DNA of 64,000 nt, from positions 13,090-77,089 of the forward strand of contig QIGL01000052.1 in the NCBI GenBank assembly GCA_003228915.1, read 5' to 3'. The position numbers and the translations under genes were made by a program. The notes beneath the pieces were generated by a model, which worked only from the letters and a program-made list of their open reading frames with translations, was not told the origin of the DNA and did not search any database. This document shows positions 6,969 through 52,913 of this stretch, piece by piece (positions within the stretch are counted from its first letter, which is position 1; each line of letters starts with the position of its first letter). Source of the stretch: Acidiferrobacteraceae bacterium (GTDB lineage: Bacteria; Pseudomonadota; Gammaproteobacteria; Acidiferrobacterales; SZUA-150).

Positions 6969-7000
6969 CGTTAGGTAAACTGATAACCAACACATAACTT

Positions 7001-7648
7001 TTGAATCAACATATAAATAATGGTGCAGGCATGATGACCGATGATTTAGTGAAAGGACCACAAGCCCTTGGATTAGTGCCAATGGTGATTGAGACAACCG
7101 GCAAAGGCGAGCGGGCTTACGATATTTATTCTCGCATGCTCAAGGAGCGGGTTATTTTCCTGGTCGGGCCGGTCGAGGACTACATGTCTAATTTGATCGT
7201 GGCCCAGTTGTTGTTTCTTGAGTCCGAGAACCCGGATAAGGACATACATATCTATATCAACTCACCCGGCGGGGCCGTGACCGCGGGTTTGGCGATTTAT
7301 GACACTATGCAGTTCATAAAACCCGATGTCAGCACGGTTTGTATCGGCCAGGCCGCCAGTATGGGTGCGCTGTTGCTGGCCGGTGGCGCCAAAGGCAAGC
7401 GTTTCGCACTACCACACGCGCGTATGATGATTCACCAGCCCCTGGGGGGATTTCAGGGTCAGGCCACGGATGTTGATATTCATGCCCGGGAGATTCTGCG
7501 GGTTCGTGAGCGCCTGAACGAGATTCTGGCGGCCCATACAGAACAAAAACTTGAAAAAATTCAACAAGATACAGAACGTGATAACTTCCTGGAAGGGTCT
7601 GAGGCGGTGGAATTTGGCCTGATTGATAAAGTTATTGAAAAGCGTTAG
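7001..7648 (+). CDS. clpP: ATP-dependent Clp protease proteolytic subunit
   Basis: Motifs [14 protein letters not shown] and MIHQP. The true start is probably the ATG at 7031 (MMTDD...). Confidence 0.95.
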
Positions 7649-7797
7649 TCGGCCCAAACAGACATTTGAACAGCCATGTGATTTGTCTGTTTACTTGTAT
7701 GGGTACAGATGTGCTATAAATATATATAGAGAGAATGGTATAGGAAAGTGAATTGCAGGGTAAAAACGCGGGTTTTACCATCAAAAAATGAGGTGCA

Positions 7798-9096: not shown

Positions 9097-9298
9097 TCTT
9101 TTGATCGTAAACTCCTGGACGGGTTTCCCCGATTAATCCAGGCCGCGGCTGAGGCTCAATGGCCGCGTGTACGCAACTACTCCGATTACCAGTGTATCCC
9201 TTATAGGGTGAGTGTGTTTTTCAATTCAAAACTGACCGAATATCGGTAATTTTGGGTTTATTCTGCTTGTTATACCCCTACCCACTATTCCTCAAGCG

Positions 9299-9328
9299 CT
9301 TGAATGTACAAATAAAAGTCCCCATGAA
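9299..9328 (+). promoter_or_regulatory. Sigma-32 (RpoH) heat-shock promoter candidate for lon
   Basis: CTTGAAT, 14 nt, then CCCCATGA. Compare the consensus CTTGAAA-N13-15-CCCCATNT. Lies about 110 nt upstream of the lon ATG. Confidence 0.6.
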
Positions 9329-9438
9329 GTCACTAATGTCACTAGTACAGACAAATAGGCACGTCTTCAGAATAATGCTAGGCTTAATTTAGTGCGCGAG
9401 GGTGACCAGCGTATTTATAACGACTAAAACAGGGTGAG

Positions 9439-11892
9439 ATGAGTAAAAATATGACAACCGATGAAAATGATGAGAATCAGCTAACCACAGAAGAGATGTC
9501 AGACGCGATACCTGGAAATTTACCGGTGTTACCGCTTCGGGATGTAGTCGTTTTCCCGCACATGGTCATTCCTTTATTTGTGGGCCGTAAAAAATCTATC
9601 GTGGCGCTTGAAAAGGCCATGGAAGAAGGTAAAAAAATCATGTTGGCGGCACAGAAAAGTGCTTCTGATGACGACCCTGACATCGAACAGATTCACCGAA
9701 TCGGCACGGTAGCCGGAATTCTGCAATTGCTTAAGTTGCCAGACGGCACAGTCAAGGTACTGGTTGAGGGCGATCAGCGAGCAGTGATCACCGACTATAC
9801 CGAAAAAGAAACCTGCTTCATTGCTGACATCGACATGCTTGATGATGCAATGACGAAACCCGAGGAACACGAAGCCCTGATGCGTTCGGTGTTATCGGAG
9901 TTTGATCAGTACGTAAAACTTAACATGAAAATCCCGCCAGAAATTCTGACTTCAGTCAATAATATTGAAGAGCCGGGCAGGCTGGCCGATACCATTGCTG
10001 CACATTTAAGCCTCAAGATAGACGAGAAGCAGGAAATTCTCGAGATGTGTGATGTCCACGAGCGTCTCGAACAAATTTTATCTGTCATGGATTCAGAAAT
10101 AGATTTGCTGCAGGTTGAGAAACGAATCCGTGGTCGCGTCAAAAGACAAATGGAAAAAAGCCAGCGCGAATACTATTTGAATGAACAAATGAAGGCCATC
10201 CAAAAAGAACTTGGCGACATGGATGAAGCGCCAAACGAAATTGAAGAGCTGAAAAAGAAAATTGAAACATCGGGTATGACCAAGGAGGCCAGGGAGAAGG
10301 TCGATGCTGAATTAAATAAAATGAAAATGATGTCACCCATGTCAGCAGAAGCGACCGTGGTGCGTAATTATATTGACACAATTATTAATGTCCCATGGAA
10401 AAAACGTTCAAAAATTACCAAAGACATCCAAAAGGCCGAAGTTGTACTTGAAGAAGACCATTATGGCCTGGAAAAAGTCAAAGAACGAATCCTTGAGTAC
10501 CTTGCTGTTCAGCAACGGGTGAAAAAATTAAAGGGACCCATTCTTTGCCTGGTAGGACCTCCTGGCGTCGGTAAAACTTCACTTGGCCGTTCTATTGCCC
10601 GGGCAACCAACCGAAAATTTATCAGGATGGCCCTGGGCGGGGTCAGGGACGAGGCCGAGATTCGTGGCCACCGTCGGACCTATATCGGCTCAATGCCGGG
10701 CAAGATTATCCAGAACCTGAGCAAGGTCAAGGTTCGTAACCCGCTGCTCATGCTTGATGAAGTAGATAAAATGTCTACGGATTTTCGGGGCGATCCTTCT
10801 TCAGCACTTTTAGAGGTGCTGGATCCTGAACAAAACCATACCTTTGGCGATCACTACCTGGAAGTGGATTACGATTTGTCAGATGTCATGTTTGTTGCTA
10901 CTGCCAATACATTGAATATCCCGGGACCATTGCTGGATCGCATGGAAGTAATTCGATTATCCGGTTATACGGAAGATGAGAAAGTAAACATCGCCAAGCG
11001 TTATCTCGTTTCCAAGCAAATGAAAAATAACGGGCTGACAACGTCTGAAATTGAAATTGCTGACGAGGTGCTGCAGGATATTGTCCGTTATTACACCCGC
11101 GAAGCCGGGGTCCGAAATCTTGAACGTGAGATATCAAAAATATTCAGAAAAGTGGCAAAAGAATTGCTAATTGATAAAGACAAAAAAATCAGCGTCACCT
11201 CCGATAATCTTGAGACTTACCTGGGCGTAAAACAATTCCGTTACGGGATGGTTGAAGAGAACAACCAGGTTGGCCAGGTAACGGGCCTGGCCTGGACAGA
11301 AGTAGGCGGTGAGTTGCTGACTGTAGAAAGCGCCATCATGCCTGGTAAAGGCAAGCTGACCATCACTGGCAAACTCGGTGATGTCATGCAGGAGTCCATC
11401 CAGGCGGCAATGAGCGTCGTCCGCAGCCGTGTTGATGTATTGGGCATAGACCCTGATTTTTATCAAAAATACGATATCCATATTCATGTGCCTGAGGGGG
11501 CTACCCCAAAAGATGGTCCAAGCGCTGGTGTCGCGATGTGTACTGCCATGGTGTCATCTTTGACCAGCATACCGGTGCGGGCAGATGTTGCCATGACGGG
11601 CGAGATTACGCTGCGCGGTGAGGTGTTGCCTATTGGCGGATTGAAAGAAAAATTGCTGGCTGCGCACCGGGGTGGAACCAAAATAGTGCTTATTCCTGAA
11701 GAAAATCGTAAGGACCTGGCAGAGATTCCGGAGAATGTGCTGGCAGCGCTTGATATCAGGCCGGTCAAATGGGTGGACCAGGTGCTGGAAACCGCCCTTG
11801 AATACATGCCTGAATCGAATTCACCTAAAACGTCACCATCGTCAGCAGGTGACAAAAAACAGAAAAACGAAAATTCTGTCATAAAGCATTAA
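9439..11892 (+). CDS. lon: Lon protease
   Basis: 817 aa. LON N-domain, Walker [10 protein letters not shown], catalytic-Ser motif PKDGPSAG. Confidence 0.97.
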
Positions 11893-39233: not shown

Positions 39234-39309
39234 GGGGCTATAGCTCAGCTGGGAGAGCGCCTGCATGGCATGCAGGAGGTCGGCGGTTCGATCCCGCCTA
39301 GCTCCACCA
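39234..39309 (+). tRNA. tRNA-Ala (anticodon GGC)
   Basis: Acceptor ggggcta/tagctcc with the G3:U70 identity pair, anticodon loop ATGGCAT, CCA end. Confidence 0.9.
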
Positions 39310-39341
39310 AATACGGCTAGTGATAGTCGCAAAAGACTTAG

Positions 39342-39402
<61 letters not shown>

Positions 39403-39417
<15 letters not shown>

Positions 39418-40034: not shown

Positions 40035-40475
40035 ATGAGTAAATTAATAAGAAATTCAAGCCTGATTGTACTAATGTCGTTATTTGTTTTTGGGAATTTA
40101 AGCGCGTTTGCTGGTGCGAAATTGCCGCATAAAGTAGTAATCCAGGTTAGTACTGATGATCCAAGAACCCAAAAAATAGCATTGAATAATGCCGTCAACC
40201 TGCAGAAGCTTTATGGTATTGATAATATTAAGATTGAAATTGTTGCCTATGGTCCAGGACTTGGGTTGTTGACAACAAAGAGCAAGCAGGCCGATAGAGT
40301 GAAAAGCCTGGCAGTGCAGGAGATAACCTTTAGCGCATGCCATAATACTATGAAAGGTGTTAAACGCAAAACAGGTAAAATGCCCGTCCTGCTTGAAGGT
40401 GTCGGAATGGTCACAGCAGGTGTTGCCCGTATTATAGAATTGCAAGAACAAGGGTACGCCTACGTCCGACCATAA
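40035..40475 (+). CDS. Secreted DsrE/DsrF-like family protein (paralog of 3208..3654)
   Basis: GGAGG RBS, signal peptide (FVFGNLSAFA). IEIVAYGPG, FSACHNT and GYAYVRP align along the full length with the 3208 protein. Confidence 0.75.
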   Translation: MSKLIRNSSLIVLMSLFVFGNLSAFAGAKLPHKVVIQVSTDDPRTQKIALNNAVNLQKLYGIDNIKIEIVAYGPGLGLLTTKSKQADRVKSLAVQEITFSACHNTMKGVKRKTGKMPVLLEGVGMVTAGVARIIELQEQGYAYVRP

Positions 40476-40499
40476 AATTTAAGAAACCTAGCTGAATAT

Positions 40500-40537
40500 G
40501 GATAGATCGTGGTTCGTTTCGCTCTCACGATCTATCC
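40500..40537 (+). terminator. 12-bp perfect stem hairpin downstream of the DsrE-like gene (weak T tail)
   Basis: Stem ggatagatcgtg, 14-nt loop, stem cacgatctatcc, followed by aggttt. Confidence 0.45.
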
Positions 40538-40683
40538 AGGTTTAGGTAAGCCCGTTAATGGTAGCGGGCGCTATATGTAAAGATATCGACGAAGTTCTCC
40601 GCACCAATAGACAGTCAACCGAAGAGATAAGCAGGCATATAAACGAACTTCGGTGCCAATTCAAGAAACCTACACCTTAGTGC

Positions 40684-40712
40684 TTGACATGTGTCTAACA
40701 CACACTTTCTAT
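40684..40712 (+). promoter_or_regulatory. Sigma-70 promoter with embedded TGTGT-N3-ACACA box (copy 2), upstream of the YVTN gene
   Basis: TTGACA TGTGTCTAACACACACT TTCTAT, 17-nt spacer. About 295 nt upstream of ATG 41008. Confidence 0.5.
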
Positions 40713-41007
40713 CTTTGAAAACACAGGAAACCAGCTGAAACAGACAATACTAGTATAGTGGTTTGTTCGCGGTGATAAGTGCTTTGCAGTTGCCACCGTA
40801 ACCGGGGTTTTTACATATATAAATTGGATATACCAAAAAATCCTCTGGAAAACTACTGGTTGTGGTTGTTGTAATAACAGTAACGAATATTAGTAATGGA
40901 TGATCCTGATCAGAGCGTGTAGCAACGATGTCATATGCGAAGCTGGATTCTGCCTGTAAATAACTCATTCGCTCGTTCATAGTTTCGATAACAACGGAGA
41001 TGAAGTA

Positions 41008-42135
41008 ATGAATAAAAATTTAATTTTGTTTTTCAGTATTATCATGGCGGGAACATTTTTTGCCGGCTCCCTCCCGGCTGTGGCAGGGAAAAAATCAGAT
41101 GAAGCAACGATTCTTTATATCACTAACGAAGGAAGTAACACGCTCTCGATAATAGATGGAGAAAAATATAAAGTTATCACAACAATACCGGTGGGCAAAA
41201 CCCCCCACCATCCATGGCTAGTGCCGGGAGGCAAGTATGTGTTTACCGATAACAGGGGGGAGAATACCTTGTCGGTAGTTGATGTAAAAGCCGGCAAAAC
41301 AATTAAAACCATCACCGTAGGTAACGCCCCCACTCATATAGTGTTTACGCCAGATGGAAAATATGCCTATGTGGCCAATACCAAAGATAAAACTACCTCG
41401 GTAATCGATCTTGCTGAACTCGAGGTCGCTGCCACTATTACAACCGGTGGCGGCTCACACGATCCTGCCATCACCCCGGATGGCAAGTTTGTCTATGTCA
41501 CTGCCAGGAAACCTGGCCATGTGGCAGTGATCGACACGTCCACGAATAAGGTCATTAAGAAAATATCCACGGGTGGAAAAGCGAATGGCGTGCGTATGAC
41601 AAAGGATGGCAAGTTTGTCTGGGTGGGTAATACCAAGGCCGGAACCGTATCCGTTATCGATACCGCGAAAAATAAGGTGGTCGCCACAATCAAGTCCGGT
41701 GCCGGAACCCATAACATCCGTTTTTCACCAGACGGTAAATATGCCTACGTCGGCAATATGAAAGATGGCAACCACGCAGTGATCAACACGGCCACATATA
41801 AGGTCGTTACACGAATACCGACTGGCAAAGGTGCAAACATCGCCTATTTCCATCCAAACGGTAAATACATCTATTTCTCCATTAACAAAGCCAATGAGAT
41901 CCCGGTAGTAGATGCTAAAACCAACAAGATAATTACGAAGATTCCAATCGGTGAAGGTGGTACGCACAACCTGGCCTTTGTGGATGGTGGCAAGTTCCTC
42001 TACGCCACCAGTTGGTTCGGTGAATATATCCTTGTGATTGATACCAGGAAAAATAAAGTTATCAAAGAGATACCGGCGATGTTCTCCAACGGCATAAAAG
42101 TAAAAGGCGCAACACCAGCGACCGGCAGGGGATGA
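41008..42135 (+). CDS. YVTN-family beta-propeller repeat protein, secreted
   Basis: Signal peptide (FFAGSLPAVAG). About 8 repeats of ~40 aa of the form Y-V-x-N-x-x-x-x-T-(L/V)-S-V-I-D...I-x-V-G-x-x-P-x-x-(I/V)-x-x-(T/S)-P-D-G-K. Confidence 0.85.
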   Translation: MNKNLILFFSIIMAGTFFAGSLPAVAGKKSDEATILYITNEGSNTLSIIDGEKYKVITTIPVGKTPHHPWLVPGGKYVFTDNRGENTLSVVDVKAGKTIKTITVGNAPTHIVFTPDGKYAYVANTKDKTTSVIDLAELEVAATITTGGGSHDPAITPDGKFVYVTARKPGHVAVIDTSTNKVIKKISTGGKANGVRMTKDGKFVWVGNTKAGTVSVIDTAKNKVVATIKSGAGTHNIRFSPDGKYAYVGNMKDGNHAVINTATYKVVTRIPTGKGANIAYFHPNGKYIYFSINKANEIPVVDAKTNKIITKIPIGEGGTHNLAFVDGGKFLYATSWFGEYILVIDTRKNKVIKEIPAMFSNGIKVKGATPATGRG

Positions 42136-42143
42136 ATGATACG

Positions 42144-42171
42144 GGAGCAGCCGTTTAACAGCGGCTGCTCC
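42144..42171 (+). terminator. 10-bp stem hairpin after the YVTN gene (no T tail)
   Basis: Stem ggagcagccg, loop TTTAACAG, stem cggctgctcc. Confidence 0.35.
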
Positions 42172-42297
42172 ACCCAATTGGTTATTTGGTTAAGCTAGAC
42201 AGACGAAGGCAGCGTTTAATTTATTGCCGATTTTGATGTCTCACATGGAGTTATAAATCACAGAAAAAAAGTGTTAACATATTCCAACAAACCCGGC

Positions 42298-42416
42298 CGT
42301 GCCCTGTTCGGGGGTAACTGTCGTGCCCTGTTCGGGGGTAACTGTCGTGCCCTGTTCGGGGGTAACTGTGGGCGCCACCTGGCAAGGACTATCGGCGCCA
42401 CCTGACAAGGAATATT
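42298..42416 (+). repeat. Two back-to-back tandem repeat arrays immediately upstream of the exporter start codon
   Basis: cgtgccctgttcgggggtaactgt x3, perfect, 24 bp (42298..42369). Then ggcgccacctggcaaggactatc / ggcgccacctgacaaggaatatt, 23 bp x2 (42371..42416). The ATG is at 42420. Confidence 0.9.
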
Positions 42417-42419
42417 GTT

Positions 42420-44771
42420 ATGCGAAAGCTGGTCGAACAATATGTCCCGGGTTATACTCGCTGGATTATACGCTGGCGCTGGCTGGTAGTAGTTGCAAGC
42501 CTGATTGCGGTGGCAGCAGCGGGTTATGGTTTGCGTAATTTTGCATTCACTGCTGATTACAAAGTCTATTTCGGAAAAGACAATCCCGAGCTCATTACTT
42601 TTCAAAAATTCGAGAACACTTATACCAATACCGAGAATATCCTTTTTGTCCTTCAGCCCAGGGATAAAAATATTTTCACCCGCGAGACCCTGGAGATTGT
42701 CAAGCAACTGACCGAAAAGGCCTGGCAAATTCCTTATGCCATTCGTGTCGACTCGCTTACCAATTACCAGCATACCGAGGCCAAGGGCGATGATCTGACC
42801 GTGGCTGACCTGGTGGCAGAACCACAAGCACTGAAGGCTGCCGACCTGGACAGGATCAGGGCCGTGGCACTTGAAGAGCCAGCCCTGGTAGGGCGCATGA
42901 TCGCGGCAGATGGCGCCACCACCGGTATCTCGGTGACCTTACAGTTTCCTGGCACAGACCATACTGGACATTTACCCAAGGCAGTGGCCTACGCAGAAAA
43001 AATTACGGCGGAGTTGCGTATAACCCATCCTGATCTGAGAGTGGCCCTCACTGGCGTTTCAATCTTCAGTGCAGCGGAAATCCAGGTTAGTGAATCGGAT
43101 TCATACGTCCTGGTGCCAGTAATGTACGGCCTGATGATTACGTTATTGTTGGTACTTTTGCGCTCGGTTTCCGGTACCGTGACAACACTGCTTGTGGTCA
43201 GCTTGTCGGTCATTACTGCCCTGGGGCTCATGTCCTGGACAGGTCTCAAGATGAATGCATCGACGGCACTGGCGCCGATTATTATTCTTACTCTCGCTAT
43301 TGCCGACAGTGTCCACATCTTGCTGACCACCTTCGACGAAGTGCGTGCTGGCCGCTCGAAAAATGAAGCCCTGGTAGAAAGTTTGAGCATTAATGCGGAG
43401 CCGGTGTTTTTGACCATGTTAACGACAGGCATCGGTTTTTTTAGCCTCAATTTTTCTGACTCACCGCCGTTTAATGATCTTGGTAATATCACCGCTATCG
43501 GGGTTATTGCCGCCTGGATATTCTCCATGACTTTTCTGCCCGCGTTAATGTCGATCCTGCCATTGCGACTACGACCGAAAACAGGTGAACGACGCCTGGC
43601 CATGGATCGTTTCGGCGATTTCGTGGTTAGTCGTCGCGTGCCCTTGTTTTGGAGCATGATGATAGCCAGCATTGTCATTATCGCCTTCATTCCTCGCCTT
43701 GAACTGGATGACCGTTTTATCCAGTGGTTTGATGAAAGCATTCCGTTTCGTGTCGATACGGATTTTGCCACTGCTAATCTTACGGGCCCTTATACGCTGG
43801 AGTATTCCATCGACTCCGGCGAGGCTGGTGGTATTTCTGAGCCCGAATACTTGCAACGACTGGAGACTTTTACCATCTGGTTGCGAGCACAGCCCGAGAT
43901 TACCCACGTCAATAGTTTCACTGATGTAATAAAGCGGCTCAACAAGTCCATGCATGGCGATGACCCCGGTTGGTACCGGTTACCTGATAAGCGGGAACTG
44001 GCCGCACAATATTTATTATTGTATGAAATGTCTCTGCCCTATGGTCTTGATCTCAATAGCCAGATTGATCTGGGTAAATCGGCAACACGGTTAACGGTGA
44101 CCCTGGATACTATCCCGCAGAAAAATATTATCGAGGTAATAAAGCGCAGCGAATCATGGCTGTCGGATAACATGCCACCGGCCATGCAGGCAAGGGCGAC
44201 AGGCACCATTGTCATGTTCGTGAATCTTGCGATCCGAAATATTTACAGCATGTTGGGCGGCACGATCCTGGCTTTTGTATTGATTTCCTTAACGCTGATA
44301 TTTGCCCTACGTAGCATTCGCCTGGGCTTGATAAGCCTGATCCCCAACTTTTTGCCGGTGTTAATCACCTTTGGTTTATGGGCAATTTTCGTTGGCGAGA
44401 TTGGGCTCATTGCCTCTATGATTACCGCTACCAGCATGGGACTCATTGTCGATGATACGGTCCACATACTTAGCAAGTACCGGCGCGCAAAACACGCGCA
44501 AAACCTTGGTACCCACGATGCAATTCGTTACAGCTTTTCCCATGTGGGTAAGGCCCTCTGGGTAACCACTTTGATAATGATTGCCGGATTTATTGTGTTG
44601 GCCTTTTCCAGTTACAAGCTAAATGTCGAAATGGGTATACTGACTGTCATGGCCGTTGGTGTAGCCTTGGCCATGGATTTCCTGCTATTACCCTCTTTAT
44701 TAATGTTTATGGATAAAGACAAACAATGTAACTGTGTCACTTGTCGGGAGAAACATCTTGCTACAACATGA
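42420..44771 (+). CDS. MMPL/RND-superfamily exporter (12-TM, two large periplasmic loops)
   Basis: 783 aa. Two homologous halves, each with a TM bundle carrying an SSD-like segment (ILTLAIADSVHIL and MGLIVDDTVHILSKY). Confidence 0.85.
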   Translation: MRKLVEQYVPGYTRWIIRWRWLVVVASLIAVAAAGYGLRNFAFTADYKVYFGKDNPELITFQKFENTYTNTENILFVLQPRDKNIFTRETLEIVKQLTEKAWQIPYAIRVDSLTNYQHTEAKGDDLTVADLVAEPQALKAADLDRIRAVALEEPALVGRMIAADGATTGISVTLQFPGTDHTGHLPKAVAYAEKITAELRITHPDLRVALTGVSIFSAAEIQVSESDSYVLVPVMYGLMITLLLVLLRSVSGTVTTLLVVSLSVITALGLMSWTGLKMNASTALAPIIILTLAIADSVHILLTTFDEVRAGRSKNEALVESLSINAEPVFLTMLTTGIGFFSLNFSDSPPFNDLGNITAIGVIAAWIFSMTFLPALMSILPLRLRPKTGERRLAMDRFGDFVVSRRVPLFWSMMIASIVIIAFIPRLELDDRFIQWFDESIPFRVDTDFATANLTGPYTLEYSIDSGEAGGISEPEYLQRLETFTIWLRAQPEITHVNSFTDVIKRLNKSMHGDDPGWYRLPDKRELAAQYLLLYEMSLPYGLDLNSQIDLGKSATRLTVTLDTIPQKNIIEVIKRSESWLSDNMPPAMQARATGTIVMFVNLAIRNIYSMLGGTILAFVLISLTLIFALRSIRLGLISLIPNFLPVLITFGLWAIFVGEIGLIASMITATSMGLIVDDTVHILSKYRRAKHAQNLGTHDAIRYSFSHVGKALWVTTLIMIAGFIVLAFSSYKLNVEMGILTVMAVGVALAMDFLLLPSLLMFMDKDKQCNCVTCREKHLATT

Positions 44772-44796
44772 TCAAATCATAAGGAGGGTGCCAGTT

Positions 44797-45600
44797 ATGA
44801 ATAAAATAATTCTGGCGCTTGTTATTGCATCTGTAGTGTCTGTGCTGATCCCGGTATCGGTATCGGCTGCCGAGGATCCCGTGGTTAAAGGCGAAGCAAT
44901 TGCTCGCGAATGGGACCGTCGTGATCGCGGATACGGTGATACCAGCGCGAATATGAAAATGATTCTGGAAAACCGCCAGGGGCAAACCAGTGAACGGAAA
45001 ATGCGCATATTCTTCCTTGAAATGCCAAACGAAAATGATGGCGACAAGTCCATGGTGGTATTTGATTATCCCCGCGATATCAAGGGCACGGCATTGCTCA
45101 GTTATTCACATATCCTCAAGCCTGATGATCAGTGGCTCTATCTTCCGGCTTTGAAGCGCGTGAAGCGTATTTCTTCCAACAACAAATCCGGTCCCTTCAT
45201 GGGTAGCGAGTTCGCATACGAGGACATCAGTTCCCAGGAGCTGAAGAAATACAGTTATAAATGGCTGCGTGATGAACCTTGCGGCAAGTCTGATTGTTTT
45301 GTACTGGAACAACGTCCGTTGTATGAGAATTCCGGTTATACCCGTCAAGTTGCCTGGTATGACAAGGAGGCATATCGCCTGCAGCGCATAGACTACTACG
45401 ACCGCAGGAATGCGTTGCTGAAAACACTTGGTTTTAGCAAGTACCAAAAACATTTGGATAAATACTGGCGTGCCCATGACATGTATATGGTCAATAAACA
45501 AACGGGGAAAAAAACCAGGCTGGTTTATGAAAATCTTAAATTTAAAAGTGGACTGACAGACAAGGACTTCACGCAAAGCCGTCTGAAACGTATGCGCTGA
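44797..45600 (+). CDS. Outer-membrane lipoprotein-sorting (LolA-like) protein, secreted
   Basis: AAGGAGGG RBS. ATG lies 25 nt after the exporter stop. Signal peptide (VLIPVSVSA/AEDP). The body resembles the LolA-like family commonly found next to MMPL exporters (recognition from memory). The ORF is open from 44734. Confidence 0.65.
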   Translation: MNKIILALVIASVVSVLIPVSVSAAEDPVVKGEAIAREWDRRDRGYGDTSANMKMILENRQGQTSERKMRIFFLEMPNENDGDKSMVVFDYPRDIKGTALLSYSHILKPDDQWLYLPALKRVKRISSNNKSGPFMGSEFAYEDISSQELKKYSYKWLRDEPCGKSDCFVLEQRPLYENSGYTRQVAWYDKEAYRLQRIDYYDRRNALLKTLGFSKYQKHLDKYWRAHDMYMVNKQTGKKTRLVYENLKFKSGLTDKDFTQSRLKRMR

Positions 45601-45610
45601 TATTTAATCT

Positions 45611-46879
45611 ATGACCCCGCTGATGAGGCCCGCGATATATTTATTAACTATTCTGGCAACAATACTGGCCGTTCTGTCAAAATCAGCCATGGCGCTGGAG
45701 TTCGCCGGTTGGGCTGAGCTGGAGGGCAAAACCTTTCAATACGAGCCGCTCTACGAAGGGCAACAGCAGAACAGCGCTTCGGCTGCTATTCAGCCTGAAA
45801 TTTATCAGGAGTGGGCCGGCGGGAATGCGTTTACCTTTGTTCCTTTTTACCGTTATGACAGTGCCGACGATCAACGAACCCACTTTGATATCAGGGAAGC
45901 CATGTTGCTTTTGCCATGGGAAAACTACGAACTCAGGCTCGGTCTTGGTAAGGTGTTTTGGGGTGTGACGGAAGCGAGCCATCTCGTCGATATTATCAAT
46001 CAAACTGACCTGGTGGAGTCTCTCGACGGGGAAGAAAAACTGGGCCAGCCAATGGTTAACCTTACGTTATTGGCTCAACAGGAAACACTGGGCGTCCTGG
46101 ATTTTTTTGTGCTTCCCTATTTTCGTGAACGGACGTTTCCAGGGCGCGGCGGTCGTTTACGGTTTGATCCTTATATTGATATTGATAATGGGGTTGAATA
46201 CGAAAATAGTGCCAGGCAGGGCCATGTCGATTACGCATTGCGTTACAGCAACACCATTGACAAACTGGACGTAGGAATTTCCTATTTTTACGGGACAACC
46301 CGGGAGCCTGCCTATTTACCGAAGTTCGATGCCAATGGCATCCTGAGCATTATTCCATTTTATGAAATCATCAGCCAGACGGGCCTTGATTTGCAATATG
46401 CTGGTGGTGCCTGGTTATGGAAACTGGAGACTATTTATCGCAGTGGTAACGAAGACGGTAGTTTTTATGCTACTGACGCTGGTGTTGAATATACATTTTC
46501 AGGGACTGGTTTGTCTGGTATGGATCTTGGCCTAATCCTGGAATATTTGTATGACAGCCGTGATTTTGATGTCGACCCTGCAGTACTTATCGCCAGCGGT
46601 TATATTGGCAGCCAGTTTAATACTTTTCTTGATAATGACTACATGATTGGATTACGCCTGGCGTTTAATGACGAGGCCTCGTCCGAGATTCTGACAGGAG
46701 TGATACAGGACATTGACAACCATGCCTCGATATTTCAGCTGGAAGCTAGCCGCAGAATTGGTGACAGCTTAAAAGCAGAATTGGATGCCTATGTATTTAT
46801 GGATACAAGCAAAGACCCGTTGTTGGATTTTCTGCGTAAGGACAGTTTCGTCCAGTTGGCACTGAAGTATTATTTCTAA
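45611..46879 (+). CDS. Putative outer-membrane beta-barrel protein
   Basis: Starts 10 nt after the upstream stop. Signal peptide (AVLSKSAMA/LE), alternating strands, C-terminal LALKYYF. Confidence 0.6.
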   Translation: MTPLMRPAIYLLTILATILAVLSKSAMALEFAGWAELEGKTFQYEPLYEGQQQNSASAAIQPEIYQEWAGGNAFTFVPFYRYDSADDQRTHFDIREAMLLLPWENYELRLGLGKVFWGVTEASHLVDIINQTDLVESLDGEEKLGQPMVNLTLLAQQETLGVLDFFVLPYFRERTFPGRGGRLRFDPYIDIDNGVEYENSARQGHVDYALRYSNTIDKLDVGISYFYGTTREPAYLPKFDANGILSIIPFYEIISQTGLDLQYAGGAWLWKLETIYRSGNEDGSFYATDAGVEYTFSGTGLSGMDLGLILEYLYDSRDFDVDPAVLIASGYIGSQFNTFLDNDYMIGLRLAFNDEASSEILTGVIQDIDNHASIFQLEASRRIGDSLKAELDAYVFMDTSKDPLLDFLRKDSFVQLALKYYF

Positions 46880-46908
46880 AGAGAAAATATCGTATTGGCA
46901 AGCACGAC

Positions 46909-46937
46909 TTGACATGTCACTGACACGTATCTTTTAA
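46909..46937 (+). promoter_or_regulatory. Sigma-70 promoter with a related dyad box (copy 3), upstream of the small metal-motif genes
   Basis: TTGACA TGTCACTGACACGTATC TTTTAA, 17-nt spacer. The dyad is TGTCA-C-TGACA, a weaker match to the TGTGT-N3-ACACA box. Confidence 0.4.
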
Positions 46938-47025
46938 AATCACCTCGTAAGTTTAATATCAAAGAGCGGAATTGTGAGAATGCTGCCGGGTGTGGTTATG
47001 ATTGGTGGAATTTTAGGAGAAAGTA

Positions 47026-47172
47026 ATGGAGTGGCTAACGGAAAACTGGATCTGGGTGCTGGTCGGTCTGGCGTTTTTTGCCCTGCATTTACTGGGTCAT
47101 GGTCGTCACGGTGGTCATGGAAAAAGCGATAAACAGGATAAACCGGGCAAGCAACCAGAACACCGGGATTAA
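47026..47172 (+). CDS. Small His-rich membrane protein (48 aa, DUF2933-like); below the ORF-track size cutoff
   Basis: AGGAGA RBS 6 nt upstream of the ATG. My translation: MEWLTENWIWVLVGLAFFALHLLGHGRHGGHGKSDKQDKPGKQPEHRD. One TM helix plus an HGxHGGHG tail. Confidence 0.6.
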   Translation: MEWLTENWIWVLVGLAFFALHLLGHGRHGGHGKSDKQDKPGKQPEHRD

Positions 47173-47251
47173 CCAAAGCATGTAGTGAGCACATAGTAAT
47201 GGAGACCGGCTTCACCACATTATTATACCGGGAACCATCAAGGAGAAAGTC

Positions 47252-47425
47252 ATGAAAACACAAAACAGTGAACACGAACAGAACCAAAAGGATCCAGTCT
47301 GCGGTATGGATGTCAGTCACGCTGCAGTTAGTGAAGAATTCAAATACCGGGATAAAACCTACTACTTTTGTTCCGGGGCCTGTCGGGAGACGTTTGAGAA
47401 GGAACCTGAGAAATACATTCATTAA
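47252..47425 (+). CDS. YHS-domain protein (57 aa); below the ORF-track size cutoff
   Basis: AGGAGA RBS 6 nt upstream of the ATG. My translation: MKTQNSEHEQNQKDPVCGMDVSHAAVSEEFKYRDKTYYFCSGACRETFEKEPEKYIH. It matches the YHS/TRASH pattern DPVCGM...Y-x-x-x-x-YYFCS-x-x-C-x-x-x-F. Confidence 0.8.
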   Translation: MKTQNSEHEQNQKDPVCGMDVSHAAVSEEFKYRDKTYYFCSGACRETFEKEPEKYIH

Positions 47426-47670
47426 CCCGTAAGTCGTTATCCTGACAAGAAATCAGCAGAACTAGTGTTGACAGGCCGTGAGCTGTGGTCTGCAGGCTGT
47501 TGTTTGAGTCGAGCCCACAAATATTACCATGATATTCCCATTCCGTAGCAGGAATGCATGGCTGGTATTGGTTGCAAGTATCCGAAATAGTGTATAGTCC
47601 GGTTGCAACGGCTTGTTAATACATCATGTTCAACTCAAACAATAAAGTTAATAAGACAATGGAAGGCATA

Positions 47671-48201
47671 ATGAAGAAAAATATTTTTTACCTGATCCTG
47701 TTCAGTTTTTCATTGCTGGCAGCTTGCTCAACGACCCCTACAGACGATATTAAAGTTGAAGCAGCGGCCGACGAGGATGTTAATTTTAGTAATTATAAAT
47801 CCTACGCCTGGGCAGGGGCGGTAGGTATTCTAAATGACCCGGAAGGAAAGTGGAAACAGCCCAATTTTGACATTGATAAAGAGATACAGTTCTTAATGGA
47901 CCGGGAATTCAGAAAAAATGGGTTAACCGAAAATTCCAGTAAACCTGATATGCTCGTTGCCTATGCTCTGGGTGTTGACATGTCTGCACTCAAGCTTAAA
48001 GATGATCCGAATACGAAGACATCAATGCTCAAGAATATCCCAAAAGGCGCTTTAATCATAATTCTTATTGATGCAAAGACGGGTTATGCCATGTGGGTTG
48101 GCCAGGTAAGTGCGCAAATTAAACAAAGTCCAGATATGAAAATTGTTAAAGCACGGCTGGATTATGCAATAACTGAAGTAATGAAAAAAATACCGAAGTA
48201 G
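47671..48201 (+). CDS. Lipoprotein (DUF4136-like)
   Basis: Lipobox LLAACS from the internal ATG 47671 (the ORF is open from 47626). The DUF4136 assignment is from memory of the family. Confidence 0.6.
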   Translation: MKKNIFYLILFSFSLLAACSTTPTDDIKVEAAADEDVNFSNYKSYAWAGAVGILNDPEGKWKQPNFDIDKEIQFLMDREFRKNGLTENSSKPDMLVAYALGVDMSALKLKDDPNTKTSMLKNIPKGALIIILIDAKTGYAMWVGQVSAQIKQSPDMKIVKARLDYAITEVMKKIPK

Positions 48202-48231
48202 TATTTGCAGGATAATTTTATTTCAATTTTA

Positions 48232-48266
48232 AAAACCCCGCTATGCGACTGTATAGCGGGGTTTTT
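48232..48266. terminator. Bidirectional Rho-independent terminator between convergent genes
   Basis: aaaaccccgctat, 8-nt loop, atagcggggttttt. A-run on one side, T-run on the other. Confidence 0.8.
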
Positions 48267-48310
48267 AATGCGCGGTTATAATTTAAAAATTAAAATTCTT
48301 AAAAATATCC

Positions 48311-49495
48311 CTAAAAATATTTAAGATAGAGTATATAGAGCTTTTCGAAAGAATTTTTAACCCTGACAAGAAATTTTGATCGTTTTGGAAAAATATTCCA
48401 AAACGGTGGTTTATTATCACTGGATCTGTGCATCCACATGCCATCATTTTCCATATTCAGGATACAGGAAAGCTCATAACGATAAGTAGTGACAGGTTTT
48501 TTGTTGTTTAAAATGTTGTTCATATTTTTAGCCACGGCTTGCGATCGAAGTTGTGCCATATGTGCCTGGTGGGGCACCCAGGGAGGCGGATTTTCATGGC
48601 TGGCACAGTCACCCGCTGCAAATACATTTTTTAGGCCCTTGACCTGGCCATATTTATCGACATCAACATGACCGCCTGGTGAAACAGTTATGCATGATTG
48701 TTGTAACCATTTTGCACCTGTTATACCAGGAGAATAAAGCACTAAATCCGCTTTTCGGACGGTCCCGTCTTTATCTTTCAGGCCACCTTCGATAAATTCA
48801 GCGGGTTCATAACCATAATCCAGGATAATGCCTCGTTCCTGCAGGCGATCGGTAATGGCACCTGCCTCACCAGGTTTTCTGTTAGGTGAAAAAAAGTGAA
48901 TTTCAAAATTATCCCGTACGCCTTTTTTCTTTAGTGCAAAGTCCAGCAAGGTGGCGCATTCATATATTTGTCCAGCGCGGCCTGCCACAAAACCATCAAG
49001 TTTATTGATCTTAAAACCGATATAAATGACGCCAGAAGTTAGTGACGCCAGTTTGGCCATAAATTTGTCCATATCGTCGGGACCATGACAGGGCGAAAAG
49101 GTGTGCGCTTTTGTGCCGGGAATATCATCATCCAGGAAAGATGGCCCTATACCCAGAAATAATGCATCGTTCTCGTATGATCCATTTTTGGCGATGACTT
49201 TACGGCCATTATCCTGGATATCAATTACGACATCGTCAATAAATTTAATGTTTCGGCGCCGTAAAAAAGGACGTATATCAGTGAGCACACCTTTTTTGTT
49301 TTTCTTTCCCGTGATAAATTCCGGGATTGAAGGGAAATAGGTAAATACACCATTTCCGATAAGTGTAATATCATATCGCGCTATTATTTTTCGGAAGAAA
49401 AACGCAAAAAACGGGTATATCGGTAAAAAGAGTAAATACTGGACTAAAAATAATGAAGCAAACCCATTCCCGACAATAGTTACTTTTTTTCTCAC
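48311..49495 (-). CDS. FAD/NAD(P)-dependent pyridine nucleotide-disulfide oxidoreductase (SQR/NDH-2-like)
   Basis: N-terminal VTIVGNGFAS, C-terminal FAAGDCA flavin motif, 394 aa. A hydrophobic insertion follows the first Rossmann strand. Confidence 0.65.
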   Translation of the reverse strand: MRKKVTIVGNGFASLFLVQYLLFLPIYPFFAFFFRKIIARYDITLIGNGVFTYFPSIPEFITGKKNKKGVLTDIRPFLRRRNIKFIDDVVIDIQDNGRKVIAKNGSYENDALFLGIGPSFLDDDIPGTKAHTFSPCHGPDDMDKFMAKLASLTSGVIYIGFKINKLDGFVAGRAGQIYECATLLDFALKKKGVRDNFEIHFFSPNRKPGEAGAITDRLQERGIILDYGYEPAEFIEGGLKDKDGTVRKADLVLYSPGITGAKWLQQSCITVSPGGHVDVDKYGQVKGLKNVFAAGDCASHENPPPWVPHQAHMAQLRSQAVAKNMNNILNNKKPVTTYRYELSCILNMENDGMWMHRSSDNKPPFWNIFPKRSKFLVRVKNSFEKLYILYLKYF

Positions 49496-49648
49496 ACTGC
49501 TCCCCTTTGTCTAAAATAATAAATAACCTATCTGAATATACGCAGTATATCGTAATTTTTAATAAGGAGACATACCGCCAGGAAGGATGACTTTAATATA
49601 TTGTATTTGGAGTTTTTAGGTATTGCGGGGCGTAGATAAAGACCGCTT

Positions 49649-50623
49649 TTACTGGCTAATCATGACACTATTTCCACCCAGATTTTTTGCGCGTTTACAG
49701 GCATCCATAGCATTGTTTAAAACGTCGCCGAGGGTATCAGCCTTGCCATCAATGAGCGTTACGCCAATCGAACAGCGTAGGGTGATATTTTTTCCTTCGT
49801 ACGTAATCAGGTCTTTTGTTATGAACTTATGGAATTCGTTGCCAACATACTCTGCTAGTTCTTGCGTGGTATTGTAGATCAACACGGCAAACTCATCGCC
49901 GCTTAACCTGGCGGCCATATCCGAGCCTCGAAGGCGCAGTTTTATTTTTTTACCAAGTGTAACCAGGACACAGTCCCCTGCGTCGAGCCCCATGGTATCA
50001 TTGATAAATTTAAACCTGTCTATATTTATGTATATAAGTGCGCTTGGGTTACCTTCGCCACGCTTCCTGCGTTCCATAACCCGACCCAATTCCATTTTCA
50101 GGTAATTATAATTATAGAGCTCGGTTAGTGGATCATGATCTGCAATTTTATGGATATCTTCAAGGCTCGGTCCGCGGTCATTGATGTCTTTCATTGCGGC
50201 CATAAACAATCGTTTATTGTCGCTAGAGAGTTCAGCCAGTGTTAATTCTACCAGCGTAGAGCTACCGTCTTTATGGCCTACGATTACTTCCTTTGGGCCC
50301 TGGCTGATGATTTCATTACTACCACTTTTCAGGAATCGTTCTACGTATTTATCAAAACGATCAGCATCAAAAGGTGTCATGAGCCTGGTTACGCTTTTGC
50401 CCAGCACCTCATCGGCTGAATACCCGAATAATATTTGGGCGGCACTATTATAGGTTTCAATGGTGCCATCCAAGTCAGCAATCACCACGGCATCAGAAAT
50501 ACTATTCAACAATACTTTGATCCTGGTTTTGCTCTCGGCCAGATCCTGTTGCAGCGATTCAGGACTATTGGCTTGCCCGGATTCATGCCTGGTTTGATTC
50601 TGATCGCTCATTTTACGTCTCAA
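49649..50623 (-). CDS. PAS-domain diguanylate cyclase (GGDEF domain with an SGDEF active-site variant)
   Basis: PAS-like N-terminal half (SDAVVIADLDGTIETYNSAAQILFGYS). GGDEF-domain C-terminal half with RLSGDEFAVL. Confidence 0.85.
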   Translation of the reverse strand: MRRKMSDQNQTRHESGQANSPESLQQDLAESKTRIKVLLNSISDAVVIADLDGTIETYNSAAQILFGYSADEVLGKSVTRLMTPFDADRFDKYVERFLKSGSNEIISQGPKEVIVGHKDGSSTLVELTLAELSSDNKRLFMAAMKDINDRGPSLEDIHKIADHDPLTELYNYNYLKMELGRVMERRKRGEGNPSALIYINIDRFKFINDTMGLDAGDCVLVTLGKKIKLRLRGSDMAARLSGDEFAVLIYNTTQELAEYVGNEFHKFITKDLITYEGKNITLRCSIGVTLIDGKADTLGDVLNNAMDACKRAKNLGGNSVMISQ

Positions 50624-50900
50624 TATTAGAAATATCTGTGTAAAAAATTACTAAACTTTCTCTAATTTATATAGCACAGGAAAAGGCCTGCAGTGATATT
50701 GCGGGCCATAAATCATCAAAAATTATATGAATATTTAAATTCATTATTAGGTGATAAATAGGGTGTTTTTGGCAAATAGTTACCACTATAGCTTAACTTT
50801 TGAGACTGGTTTGCTAGTCTTTCTAGTGAGCCAACGATATTAAGTGCCAGGCACTAAATTCTTCTATCTTACTGAATATAAACAACTATTAGGTTGATAA

Positions 50901-52913
50901 GTGGCAAATATTAGTATATCAAAAGACAGTCCCGCCCCAGGCCGGCCTAAAACGACAATCGAGAGAAGGCCTGCAAGTGCCGAAGGTCAAGGGTTTAGCC
51001 AGAAGCTCGCCAGTTTTAGTATTTGGCGAGAAAAGTTTGTATCAGCGATCGAGGCCTACCAGCATTGGGTAGAACAGAATGAGCCGGTTGAAGGTGAAAA
51101 TGACCTGCGAATTTACGAGTTGATTGAGTCACTAAAATCGGACAAATTAAAAATTGCTTTCATGGGAGAGCTCTCCCGTGGGAAAACTGAGTTACTCAAC
51201 GCACTCTTTTTTTCCGATTACAAGAAACGTCTCTTGCCCTCATCAGCTGGACGGACAACCATGTGTCCGACAGAGCTTCGTTACGACGTTAAAACCGGAG
51301 CTTGTATAAAACTGTTGCCTATCGAAACGCGCAAAACAGGAACTACTATAGCTGAGTACAAGCAGAATCCGGTGCAGTGGACAACGCTACATCTGCTTAA
51401 GCGGGATTCTGCCAAAGAACTCGAGGCGGCTTTTTTAGAAGTTACAAAGACTAAAAGAGTGCACACCCGGGAAGCCGAAGAGCTTGGCTTGTATGACCCA
51501 AGTAACGAGATTGCAAACAGGGGTATTTCGATTGTCGATGATATGATTGAGATACCTTGTTGGCGCCATGCAATTATTAATTACCCCCACCCCTTGCTGG
51601 AAAATGGCCTGGTGATACTGGACACGCCAGGACTCAATTCCCTTGGGTCTGAACCAGAACTCACATTAAGCATGCTGCCAGAGGCCCATGCCGTAGTATT
51701 TGTTTTGGCAGCCGATACGGGCGTCACAGTAAGCGACATGGAGATATGGAATAATCATGTCAGCTGCACTAAAAAAGAACAACTTCGTGAGCGCCTGGTT
51801 GTCCTCAATAAAATTGATGCCATGTGGGATCCATTACGCACAGAATCTGAAGTAAATAAATTAATAAACAAGCAAGTTGAAAGTACGGCATTATCATTAA
51901 AAGAAAACAGAAAAATAATTATGCCTGTATCGGCCAAGGCAGGCCTGACTGCAAAAATAAATGACGACAGCGAATTGCTTGCGAAAAGCGGGATAAATGA
52001 TCTTGAACTATGCCTGGCCAGGAAAATTTTACCCGCTAAATACGAGATAATACGTCGCAAAGTAGTTTATGAAGTTAGTGGCAGGGTAGAGAAAAGCCAG
52101 CAATTATTAAAAGCGAAGTATAACGGCGTAGATAACCAGCTTAAAAAATTAAAAGAACTTGGCGGAAAAAACCTTGATGAAATACAGGAGATGGTCTCTA
52201 TTATGCGCCGGGAGAAGAAGAAATATGAAATGGAAATCAAGGGGTTTGAAATTACAAGGAAAGTATTAACGAAACAGGCAACAGTTTTATTTAATGATCT
52301 GAATTTAAAGGCGCTTGATCAATTAATTCGTTTGACACGAAAGAATATGAGAGAAAGCTGGACAACGGCTGGCTTAAAGAAGGCCATAAGACTATTTTTT
52401 AAAACTGCCATGCACCCGATGGGTAATGTTAAAAAGAAGTCTGAAGATATTAAAAAATCTGTAGATGAGATTTGCCATAAAATGCACAAGGAATATGGGC
52501 TCCCCCTGATCCGGGTTTCTGCCTTGTCATTGGTACCTTATGTGATGGATCTGAAAAAACTGGAAGGCAGGGCTGAGGTTTTCAGGAATAGTGCGGCAAT
52601 TATTGTTACCGAGCAAAATACTGTAATCAGTAAATTTTTTGTAGTTATGGTTTCAGAAGCGAGAAAAATATTTGACGAATGCAGCCAACATGCCCAGGGA
52701 TGGTTCCAGGAGCTGGCCAGCCAGGTACATAACCAGTTAAGAGTGCATAAAAATATAATAGACAAAGGGCTGGAATCAATACGCGCAATTCATGAAGACA
52801 TCGATACTATTGGCCAGCAAATTTCCAGTCTTGAGCAGGAGAAGGCCAACATAGCGGCACAACTTGGGATAGTTAACGGACTACTTAAAAAAATTCAAAA
52901 ACCAATAGAATGA
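50901..52913 (+). CDS. Bacterial dynamin-like GTPase
   Basis: G1 GELSRGKT, G3 ILDTPGLNS, G4 VLNKID, then a long helical stalk. GTG start. 670 aa. Confidence 0.8.
   Translation: MANISISKDSPAPGRPKTTIERRPASAEGQGFSQKLASFSIWREKFVSAIEAYQHWVEQNEPVEGENDLRIYELIESLKSDKLKIAFMGELSRGKTELLNALFFSDYKKRLLPSSAGRTTMCPTELRYDVKTGACIKLLPIETRKTGTTIAEYKQNPVQWTTLHLLKRDSAKELEAAFLEVTKTKRVHTREAEELGLYDPSNEIANRGISIVDDMIEIPCWRHAIINYPHPLLENGLVILDTPGLNSLGSEPELTLSMLPEAHAVVFVLAADTGVTVSDMEIWNNHVSCTKKEQLRERLVVLNKIDAMWDPLRTESEVNKLINKQVESTALSLKENRKIIMPVSAKAGLTAKINDDSELLAKSGINDLELCLARKILPAKYEIIRRKVVYEVSGRVEKSQQLLKAKYNGVDNQLKKLKELGGKNLDEIQEMVSIMRREKKKYEMEIKGFEITRKVLTKQATVLFNDLNLKALDQLIRLTRKNMRESWTTAGLKKAIRLFFKTAMHPMGNVKKKSEDIKKSVDEICHKMHKEYGLPLIRVSALSLVPYVMDLKKLEGRAEVFRNSAAIIVTEQNTVISKFFVVMVSEARKIFDECSQHAQGWFQELASQVHNQLRVHKNIIDKGLESIRAIHEDIDTIGQQISSLEQEKANIAAQLGIVNGLLKKIQKPIE

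Follow-up and report, generated by a model that had tools for sequence, protein, structure and literature searches.

Organization of the locus

The window analyzed in this study is a 64-kb stretch (64,000 nucleotides) of contig QIGL01000052.1 of an Acidiferrobacteraceae bacterium, and all positions refer to this whole stretch unless the number of another locus is given. Between positions 42420 and 46879 it carries three tightly packed genes, coding for a transporter of the RND superfamily, a LolA-like carrier and a protein predicted to be an outer-membrane beta-barrel. This triplet is a real, widespread and functionally uncharacterized trans-envelope transport operon, and in the clade to which the window belongs it is possibly linked to metals. 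The triplet, a propeller gene ahead of it and two small genes behind it all lie on the plus strand, and the region is laid out as follows:

41008-42135, plus strand: secreted, seven-bladed propeller of the YVTN/YncE type, 375 amino acids (TIGR02276)
42144-42171, plus strand: hairpin with a 12-bp stem (folding compared with shuffles)
42298-42416, plus strand: tandem-repeat arrays, 3 x 24 bp followed by 2 x 23 bp (Tandem Repeats Finder)
42420-44771, plus strand: RND transporter of the MMPL/HAE3 lipid type, 783 amino acids (Pfam MMPL)
44797-45600, plus strand: LolA-like carrier, periplasmic and soluble, 267 amino acids (PF17131)
45611-46879, plus strand: predicted outer-membrane beta-barrel, 422 amino acids, C-terminus LALKYYF (AlphaFold2/Foldseek)
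47026-47172, plus strand: small membrane protein of family DUF2933 with a His-rich tail, 48 amino acids (Pfam)
47252-47425, plus strand: free-standing putative metal-binding protein of the YHS/TRASH type, 57 amino acids (Pfam YHS)

The four large open reading frames, the two gaps within the triplet, the hairpin and the repeats had been described in an earlier note on this DNA, and all of them were found at the coordinates given there. The RND and LolA-like genes are separated by 25 nt, the LolA-like and barrel genes by 10 nt. Read mechanically, the LolA-like frame opens at GTG 44734; ATG 44797 was preferred and is almost certainly the start, because an AAGGAGG ribosome-binding site lies 9 nt before it, and the 25-nt and 10-nt gaps follow from this choice.

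Properties of the three proteins

The RND protein matches the Pfam model MMPL (PF03176) in two stretches (E 1.4e-33, 116.7 bits against a cutoff of 20.5), and it also matches the Patched/sterol-sensing and ACR_tran models. Its top NCBIfam match is HAE3 (TIGR00921) with 154.8 bits, under the curated cutoff of 351.9, and it stays under the cutoffs of both HpnN equivalogs (TIGR03480, 139.8 versus 751.85 bits; NF052374, 73.8 versus 1100 bits); no hopanoid biosynthesis genes were found nearby in the list of open reading frames or the Pfam scans. With only 20.5 bits in the heavy-metal-efflux model of CusA/CzcA (TIGR00914, cutoff 701.45), the protein is not of the heavy-metal-efflux (HME) type. The AlphaFold2 model (predicted local distance difference test score, pLDDT, 83.7) displays 12 transmembrane (TM) helices and periplasmic domains at about residues 41-212 and 422-595. 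Its best Foldseek matches are MmpL4/5, NPC1L1, MmpL3 and HpnN, with TM-scores of 0.70-0.78, and not AcrB or CusA. Among 24-37 homologues, D678, D679 and H682 of TM10 and H299 of TM4 are invariant and D296 of TM4 is nearly so, and these charged residues presumably serve proton coupling. Judged by its MMPL score, topology, fold and TM4/TM10 residues, the protein is a member of the MMPL/HAE3 branch of the RND superfamily (TC 2.A.6.7). HpnN and MmpL3/4/5, which belong to the same subclass by fold and by the MMPL Pfam model, are lipid or siderophore transporters according to their PDB entry titles and a paper on the AmeABCD system (PMC6394551). The partners of MmpL4/5 are MmpS and AcpM, and not a LolA-like protein or a barrel.

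The LolA-like protein matches family PF17131 (LolA_like / TP_0789-like) over positions 2-184 of the 184-position profile (E 4.6e-63, 212.6 bits against a cutoff of 30). Its residues 31-265 align over 235 residues with PDB 3BK5 of Vibrio parahaemolyticus (E 4.5e-87), and it also matches PDB 9TP6, which is LolA3 of Porphyromonas gingivalis (E 1.9e-37), while its match to DUF1329 is only partial (34 bits). Since the protein begins with a type I signal peptide and has no lipobox cysteine, it should be soluble in the periplasm.

For the 422-amino-acid protein, no Pfam or NCBIfam family was found and a sequence search of the PDB gave nothing meaningful. Its AlphaFold2 model, built from a 43-sequence alignment (pLDDT 88.9, predicted TM-score 0.84), is all-beta with about 18-20 strands. 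All 50 PDB matches listed by Foldseek are outer-membrane barrels, except for two designed zinc proteins at ranks 34 and 36. The barrels include OmpM1, OmpF/C, AlgE, OprB and Wzi and were matched with a probability of 1.00, though at a TM-score of only about 0.5, so that the protein has no close solved relative. It carries a signal-peptide-like N-terminus without a lipobox cysteine and ends in the beta-signal YYF. The protein is thus predicted to be an outer-membrane beta-barrel, as the earlier note had proposed, now on the basis of a confident model and its porin matches. Its family comprises at least 7774 homologues in 2366 clusters at 50% identity, and some of these relatives bear N-terminal AMIN or OmpA peptidoglycan-binding domains, which fit an outer-membrane location. 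Membership of DUF1302 (PF06980) was considered and rejected, as the window protein gave no match and 2 of 43 relatives matched weakly (best E 2.2e-6, 27.4 bits); a distant homology between the two families is possible.

Conservation and variants of the triplet

Relatives of the barrel were searched for in one genome per GTDB species; 590 were confirmed, and the 80 best loci among them were retrieved. These and other related genome stretches fetched for comparison are numbered with an L. Seventy of the 80 barrel-anchored loci have at least 3.3 kb of upstream sequence and were taken as informative, and 63 of them show the order RND, LolA-like gene, barrel on one strand. The triplet is therefore a co-conserved unit, a point that had been set beforehand as one of two tests on which the proposal could fail; the other was the barrel prediction for the third protein, and the proposal withstood both. 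Most of the remaining loci are rearrangements, for example L019 and L030, while L075 has a divergent RND. The hosts span at least 10 phyla and include Gamma-, Alpha- and Betaproteobacteria, Desulfobacterota, Nitrospinota, Nitrospirota, Myxococcota, Planctomycetota, Verrucomicrobiota, Rhodothermales and Hydrogenedentota, to which the database names of homologues add Chlamydiota, Omnitrophota and Deferribacteres. In 23 of the 80 barrel-anchored loci the gene immediately upstream, in the same orientation, belongs to the TetR family, an arrangement that is usual for inducible efflux operons. No paper on the barrel family, on the conserved triplet as such or on the Cys-tailed RND subclade described below was found in the literature.

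The closest species-level relative, L001, has a barrel 63% identical to that of the window and shares its Pyr_redox_2 neighbor, and it provides a variant of the system. At 5560-11206 of this locus lie two FtsX/MacB_PCD permeases, an ABC ATPase fused to a C-terminal YHS domain, the LolA-like gene, a free YHS gene and the barrel, so that an ABC transporter of the MacB/LolCDE type stands in place of the RND. In addition, a fusion of an MMPL protein with a LolA-like domain has been described (TOL_3187; PMC6304351). Because of this swap and this fusion, the LolA-like protein and the barrel can be regarded as a periplasm-to-outer-membrane unit that would be fed by an inner-membrane extractor, and the gene content of L001 argues that an RND and an ABC extractor may each power the pair. 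Another kind of variation was seen in L086, where a nucleotide cyclase gene (PF00211, 10248-11318) sits between the LolA-like gene and the barrel.

Comparison with described systems

Tripartite pumps such as AcrAB-TolC and CusCBA share with the window system an RND-driven route across both membranes. They differ from it in that the window RND is small and of the lipid type, not HAE1 or HME, and in that Pfam scans of the seven genes at 40035-49495 revealed no membrane-fusion protein (MFP) and no TolC-like family; none was present either in the precomputed Pfam tables of the related loci fetched. The earlier claims that such genes are missing here, and that the system is distinct from pumps made of an RND, an MFP and an outer-membrane factor, were borne out by these scans and by the class of the RND. 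The closest described systems are instead the PG1178-81 operon of P. gingivalis, AmeABCD, and ApeL/M/N, none of which has a known cargo.

AmeABCD of Castellaniella defragrans (PMC6394551) and the co-fit DUF1302/DUF1329/BNR(COG4447)/RND(COG1033) cluster of Price et al. (bioRxiv 10.1101/072470) have been proposed to be envelope-spanning exporters. As in the window, an HAE3-type RND is combined with a periplasmic protein of the LolA superfamily and an outer-membrane protein, without an MFP or TolC. The AmeABCD carrier, however, is a DUF1329 protein of about 450 amino acids and not a PF17131 protein of 267, its outer-membrane protein belongs to DUF1302, whereas the window barrel of about 400 amino acids falls outside that family, and the gene order differs. 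Its propeller is of the COG4447 (Ycf48-like) type, in contrast to the YVTN type of the window, which is not conserved. Only the RND is thus of the right class, and the window system does not belong to the AmeABCD-type tetrapartite group.

The comparison raises the question whether the propeller upstream of the triplet is a fourth component, which would act as a periplasmic assembly or stabilizing factor like AmeC (COG4447) or the MmpL3/TtfA propeller. It matches the YVTN repeat model TIGR02276 in 7 stretches (E 1.1e-66), has a signal-peptide-like N-terminus without a lipobox cysteine, and is encoded next to the triplet on the same strand. Ame-type clusters include a propeller, the protein weakly matches the MmpL3/TtfA stabilizer model NF048007 (62.9 bits), and YncE-type propellers lie 4-7 kb from RNDs of the window clade in L087 and L104. 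The NF048007 score is nevertheless far under the cutoff of 600, and the L087 and L104 propellers are only 26-30% identical to that of the window, which is the background level of YVTN repeats. A propeller match was found in 1 of the 80 barrel-anchored loci, and none lies upstream of the RND in L082-L084 and L089-L091, although their RNDs are 79-92% identical to that of the window; the position is taken there by a transposase, a dienelactone hydrolase, PrpD or an FAD oxidoreductase. The best homologue among 5.8 billion proteins searched is 38% identical. Finally, the propeller and RND genes are 284 nt apart, and a strong hairpin (42144-42171) starts 9 nt past the propeller stop codon (-26.5 kcal/mol, z -4.3, none of 200 shuffles being as stable), which likely separates the transcription of the propeller gene from that of the operon. 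Given its absence from related loci, the hairpin and the 284-nt gap, and the lack of a close homologue, the propeller is a separate neighbor gene and not part of the module in which the earlier note had placed it; a four-part system is very unlikely. The protein collection did not contain the exact propeller sequence, but it did contain those of the genes flanking it on the contig.

The PG1178-81 operon resembles the window in gene content, with an MMPL protein, a PF17131 LolA-like protein and then an uncharacterized protein (PG1178), the likeness of this third gene being one of gene order. Like the window system, it has no function assigned. It includes the genes that showed the strongest induction when hemin was limiting (log2 fold change -7.4 to -8.1; PMC10470040), the operon was induced 13- to 136-fold by iron depletion, as were three similar Prevotella operons (PMC10434189), and PG1181, the TetR gene of the unit, was induced 84-fold by nitric oxide (PMC11018363). 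PGN0947 (LolA3) appears to correspond to PG1179. In contrast to the window, which lacks a TetR gene, PG1178-81 has one ahead of the other genes, as do 23 related loci. The Bacteroidota operons also carry ABC ATPase genes and respond to haem, iron and nitric oxide, whereas the window clade is distinguished by copper-type neighbors and a CxCxxC tail.

In Escherichia coli, ApeL (LolA-like), ApeM (RND) and ApeN (DUF3261, LolB-like) have been proposed to place a lipid-anchored aryl-polyene pigment in the outer membrane (PMC8253772). The combination of an RND with a LolA-like carrier is the same as in the window, but the Ape acceptor is a LolB-like lipoprotein and not a beta-barrel, and the Ape genes sit in a biosynthetic gene cluster, whereas no biosynthesis genes flank the window operon.

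The logic of an inner-membrane extractor, a carrier of the LolA fold and an outer-membrane acceptor is also that of LolCDE-LolA-LolB, and the L001 variant with its MacB/LolCDE-type ABC transporter comes even nearer to it. One could therefore think of an alternative lipoprotein-sorting route in which the LolA-like protein carries lipoproteins and not small molecules, as its database annotation ("outer membrane lipoprotein-sorting protein") and its LolA-superfamily fold would suggest. The window protein, however, belongs to another LolA family (PF17131), its energizing partner is a lipid-class RND instead of LolCDE, and the acceptor is a beta-barrel instead of LolB. Within the same family, LolA3 of P. 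gingivalis (9TP6) binds LolB only very weakly, does not pair with it, and lacks the signature Arg and Leu of LolA/LolB (PMC13103446), and lolA3 mutants of Flavobacterium johnsoniae showed no lipoprotein-related defect (PMC11885536). A sorting route of this kind is extremely unlikely.

A Cys-tailed subclade of RND transporters and its metal-type neighbors

The cytoplasmic C-terminal tail of the window RND reads DKDKQCNCVTCREK and contains a CxCxxC motif formed by C770, C772 and C775. These three residues are invariant in 24 of 24 homologues of its clade, which reach down to about 54% identity and bear labels from several phyla, and they are missing from all of the 68 RNDs examined in the wider family (68 of 68). 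When 44 clade members were compared with 124 other RNDs, H181, H184, H699 and H708 were present in 93-100% of the clade versus 2-4% of the others. M370 is also clade-specific, and the range for the whole residue set including it is 93-100% versus 2-7%. H181 and H184 form a DHxxH motif (D180-H181-x-x-H184) in periplasmic domain 1, and H699 and H708 lie on the cytoplasmic side of TM11. From these patterns it seems that the clade RND gained putative metal-binding sites, one made of the CxCxxC tail with H699/H708 and one of the periplasmic DHxxH.

The two small genes behind the barrel point in the same direction. The DUF2933 gene (Pfam E 1.2e-4, 22.6 bits against a cutoff of 21; ribosome-binding site AGGAG) has copies 73-75% identical at the equivalent position in L081-L083. 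The YHS gene (Pfam YHS E 2.5e-13; ribosome-binding site AAGGAG) is kept in the same three loci, and the free YHS gene between carrier and barrel in L001 is 55% identical to the window copy. YHS has been described as a probable copper sensor (PMC4626032), and DUF2933 is found in copA clusters (PMC8478169). A published YHS-bearing adenylyl cyclase has likewise been described as a probable copper sensor, which may be compared with the cyclase inserted in L086.

Further metal-type genes were found around clade members. In L085, genes for HMA, a P1B ATPase, the RND, the LolA-like protein and the barrel follow one another on one strand, and in L097 a P1B ATPase is encoded upstream. The RND of L087 is surrounded by CopB, a multicopper oxidase, MerR and CDF, that of L088 is followed by YHS and DUF5676, and L104 carries, besides a P1B ATPase with a YHS domain, two more YHS genes and DUF5676. 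Taken together, copper-type neighbors (YHS, HMA, P1B ATPase, multicopper oxidase, CopB, MerR, CDF) occur in about 6 of 13 clade lineages, compared with at most 7 of the 124 other RNDs, where only 2 of the 7 are full-length hits (conservative Fisher p = 2.6e-4; p 7e-4 for YHS alone). TetR genes show the reverse distribution, being present at none of 27 clade loci and at 39 of 124 others. As general partners of the family, YHS and DUF2933 were rejected, since they occur at 0 of 124 loci outside the clade, and the association is specific to the clade. The Cys/His sites of the RND and the DUF2933 and YHS genes behind the operon are the reason why we consider the clade system to be probably, or at least plausibly, regulated by copper or another thiophilic metal or active in its homeostasis.

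The earlier note had suggested a sulfur- or metal-containing cargo. The metal part gained contextual support, for this RND subclade only; the sulfur part gained none. It would have been linked through the DsrE-like and Pyr_redox_2 neighbors, and this link was rejected because the DsrE-like gene is never co-conserved and Pyr_redox_2 occurs only in L081-L083 and L001.

Several other observations concern the surroundings of the clade genes. TTGACA and TAAAAT hexamers lie about 20 nt apart at 46909-46940, between the barrel and the DUF2933 gene. Over-long promoter spacers are typical of MerR-type (CueR-like) promoters; a tblastn search with the L087 MerR protein as query found no MerR gene in the window. 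A Rieske protein with a TAT signal is encoded in L001 (4759-5475), L104 (8334-8972) and L088 (657-1193), with 39-57% identity between loci, and is absent from the window. In L087 a gene for a patatin-like phospholipase immediately precedes the clade RND (6127-6993, 7-nt gap), and a copy 62% identical to it lies 2.5 kb upstream of the RND in L088 (3545-4501); these neighbors hint at a lipid or lysolipid substrate.

Much of the metal evidence would also fit a system that itself performs efflux of copper, silver or zinc, exporting the ion, a lipophilic chelate or a metallophore, with the Cys and His residues on the transport path. The clade-specific CxCxxC, DHxxH, H699, H708 and M370 speak for this, as do the DUF2933 and YHS genes behind the barrel with their published copper context (PMC4626032; PMC8478169), the HMA and P1B ATPase genes ahead of the triplet in L085 and the P1B ATPase upstream in L097, and the position of L087 and L104 among CopB, multicopper oxidase, MerR and YHS-bearing P1B ATPase genes. 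Moreover, the best structural matches MmpL4/5 are siderophore exporters, and expression of the P. gingivalis operon depends on iron and haem. On the other hand, the score in TIGR00914 (20.5 bits, cutoff 701) places the RND outside the heavy-metal-efflux type, carrier and barrel show no metal-type signature, a Cys3-His site could hold structural zinc or serve regulation alone, genes for metallophore biosynthesis are missing next to the operon, and the sample of lineages is small. A metal-efflux role of the clade system is accordingly a doubtful explanation.

Proposed pathway

The folds and the predicted compartments of the three proteins, shown above together with a very strong conservation of gene order, suggest a sequence of three steps. 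Driven by the proton motive force, the RND of the MMPL/HAE3/Patched type would extract its cargo, a molecule that is hydrophobic or amphiphilic, from the inner membrane. Its periplasmic domains would then release the molecule to the soluble LolA-like carrier, which would shield it while the periplasm is crossed. At the outer membrane, the dedicated barrel of about 400 amino acids would receive the molecule and insert or release it. That the parts physically hand the molecule on, that transport runs outwards and that the cargo is hydrophobic is what we infer from this arrangement.

The same parts could also work inwards, with the barrel admitting a hydrophobic nutrient or lipid, the LolA-like protein carrying it and the RND inserting it into the inner membrane, for uptake or retrograde transport. 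Such a direction is suggested by the fused MMPL-LolA-like protein, which was up 42-fold on the long-chain alkane n-C28 versus n-C14 and Tween 80 and for which alkane transport was proposed (PMC6304351), and by DUF1302/DUF1329 genes required for growth of Pseudomonas putida on fatty esters (bioRxiv 10.1101/2020.07.04.188060). In P. gingivalis, the hmu genes for haem uptake are induced along with the operon, and NPC1/NPC1L1, structural neighbors of the RND, move sterol into membranes. Yet the experimentally characterized bacterial relatives considered here have been described as exporters (AmeABCD; by PDB titles also HpnN, MmpL3 and MmpL4/5), TetR-controlled RND operons are typically efflux systems, and the ABC transporter replacing the RND in L001 is of the outward-acting MacB/LolCDE extractor type. 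Inward transport is therefore considered unlikely.

Returning to outward transport, we consider it fairly probable that 42420-46879 is one operon encoding a three-component trans-envelope transport pathway, the version of this clade being possibly metal-linked. A number of points weigh against this view. HAE3 pumps of the HpnN type work alone, whereas the window RND sits with a carrier and a barrel and scores far below the HpnN equivalog cutoffs. The RNDs of L089-L091, 79-87% identical to that of the window, have no adjoining LolA-like gene or barrel, and an adjoining carrier and barrel are present in only 13 of 27 loci of the Cys-tail clade. From these loci it follows that the RND is not strictly dependent on the carrier and barrel in cis. 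The barrel start codon of the window has no obvious ribosome-binding site. As to the metal link, neither the LolA-like protein nor the barrel has a Cys, His or Met pattern specific to the clade, genes for a P1B ATPase, a multicopper oxidase, HMA or MerR are missing from the 64-kb window, and the association with metal genes rests on few lineages, several of them from one metagenome project, with comparison sets that were gathered differently.

Going further, the Cys-tailed subclade with its carrier and barrel may constitute a previously unrecognized pathway for copper or another thiophilic metal, which would export a lipophilic metal chelate, a metallophore or a metal-damaged lipid and use the YHS and DUF2933 proteins as sensors or partners. 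We put this forward as a tentative and rather improbable extension.

Leader region and neighboring genes

The repeat arrays take up the stretch ahead of the RND gene that forms its 5' leader or promoter region. Three copies of a 24-bp repeat, 100% identical, at 42298-42369 are followed by two copies of a 23-bp repeat at 42371-42416, which end 4 nt ahead of the RND ATG, so that the AAGGA ribosome-binding site lies inside the last copy. The arrays have no second occurrence anywhere in the window. They were rejected as a conserved regulatory element, since they are not present in the equivalent region of L082 and L083, where the RND is 92% identical, and may represent a strain-specific variable-number repeat affecting expression. 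Promoter and terminator scans gave results no better than those of shuffled sequence. Within 38-50 kb of the window, Rfam revealed only two tRNAs and no other RNA element:

39234-39417: tRNA-Ala(GGC) and tRNA-Glu(TTC) (Rfam); the open reading frames listed across this stretch are spurious

Upstream of the propeller, a secreted DsrE-like protein is encoded at 40035-40475, and a 45%-identical paralogue lies at 3229-3651; the DsrE-like genes show no linkage to the operon in other genomes. On the minus strand, an open reading frame of 160 amino acids (46940-47422) overlaps the DUF2933 and YHS genes of the plus strand and is almost certainly spurious. Downstream, at 47626-52913, follow genes for a DUF4136 lipoprotein, a Pyr_redox_2 oxidoreductase (weakly SQR-like), a PAS-GGDEF protein and a dynamin-like GTPase. 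Their order is kept in L081 and L082, where Che genes come next, and the Pyr_redox_2 and DUF4136 neighbors recur only in the closest relatives L081-L083 and L001. The shared downstream order suggests that the DNA stems from a gammaproteobacterium resembling Acidiferrobacterales.

Significance

How hydrophobic molecules move from the inner to the outer membrane of Gram-negative bacteria is only partly understood. The triplet looks like a self-contained solution to this task, with a soluble carrier and a dedicated barrel instead of an MFP and TolC, and the cargo of any one member would annotate thousands of genes now called "hypothetical". The subclade decorated with Cys and His provides a specific, testable handle on metal binding and metal-dependent phenotypes. 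If the proposed metal pathway is true, it would represent a route of envelope metal homeostasis apart from CopA, Cus and Cue.

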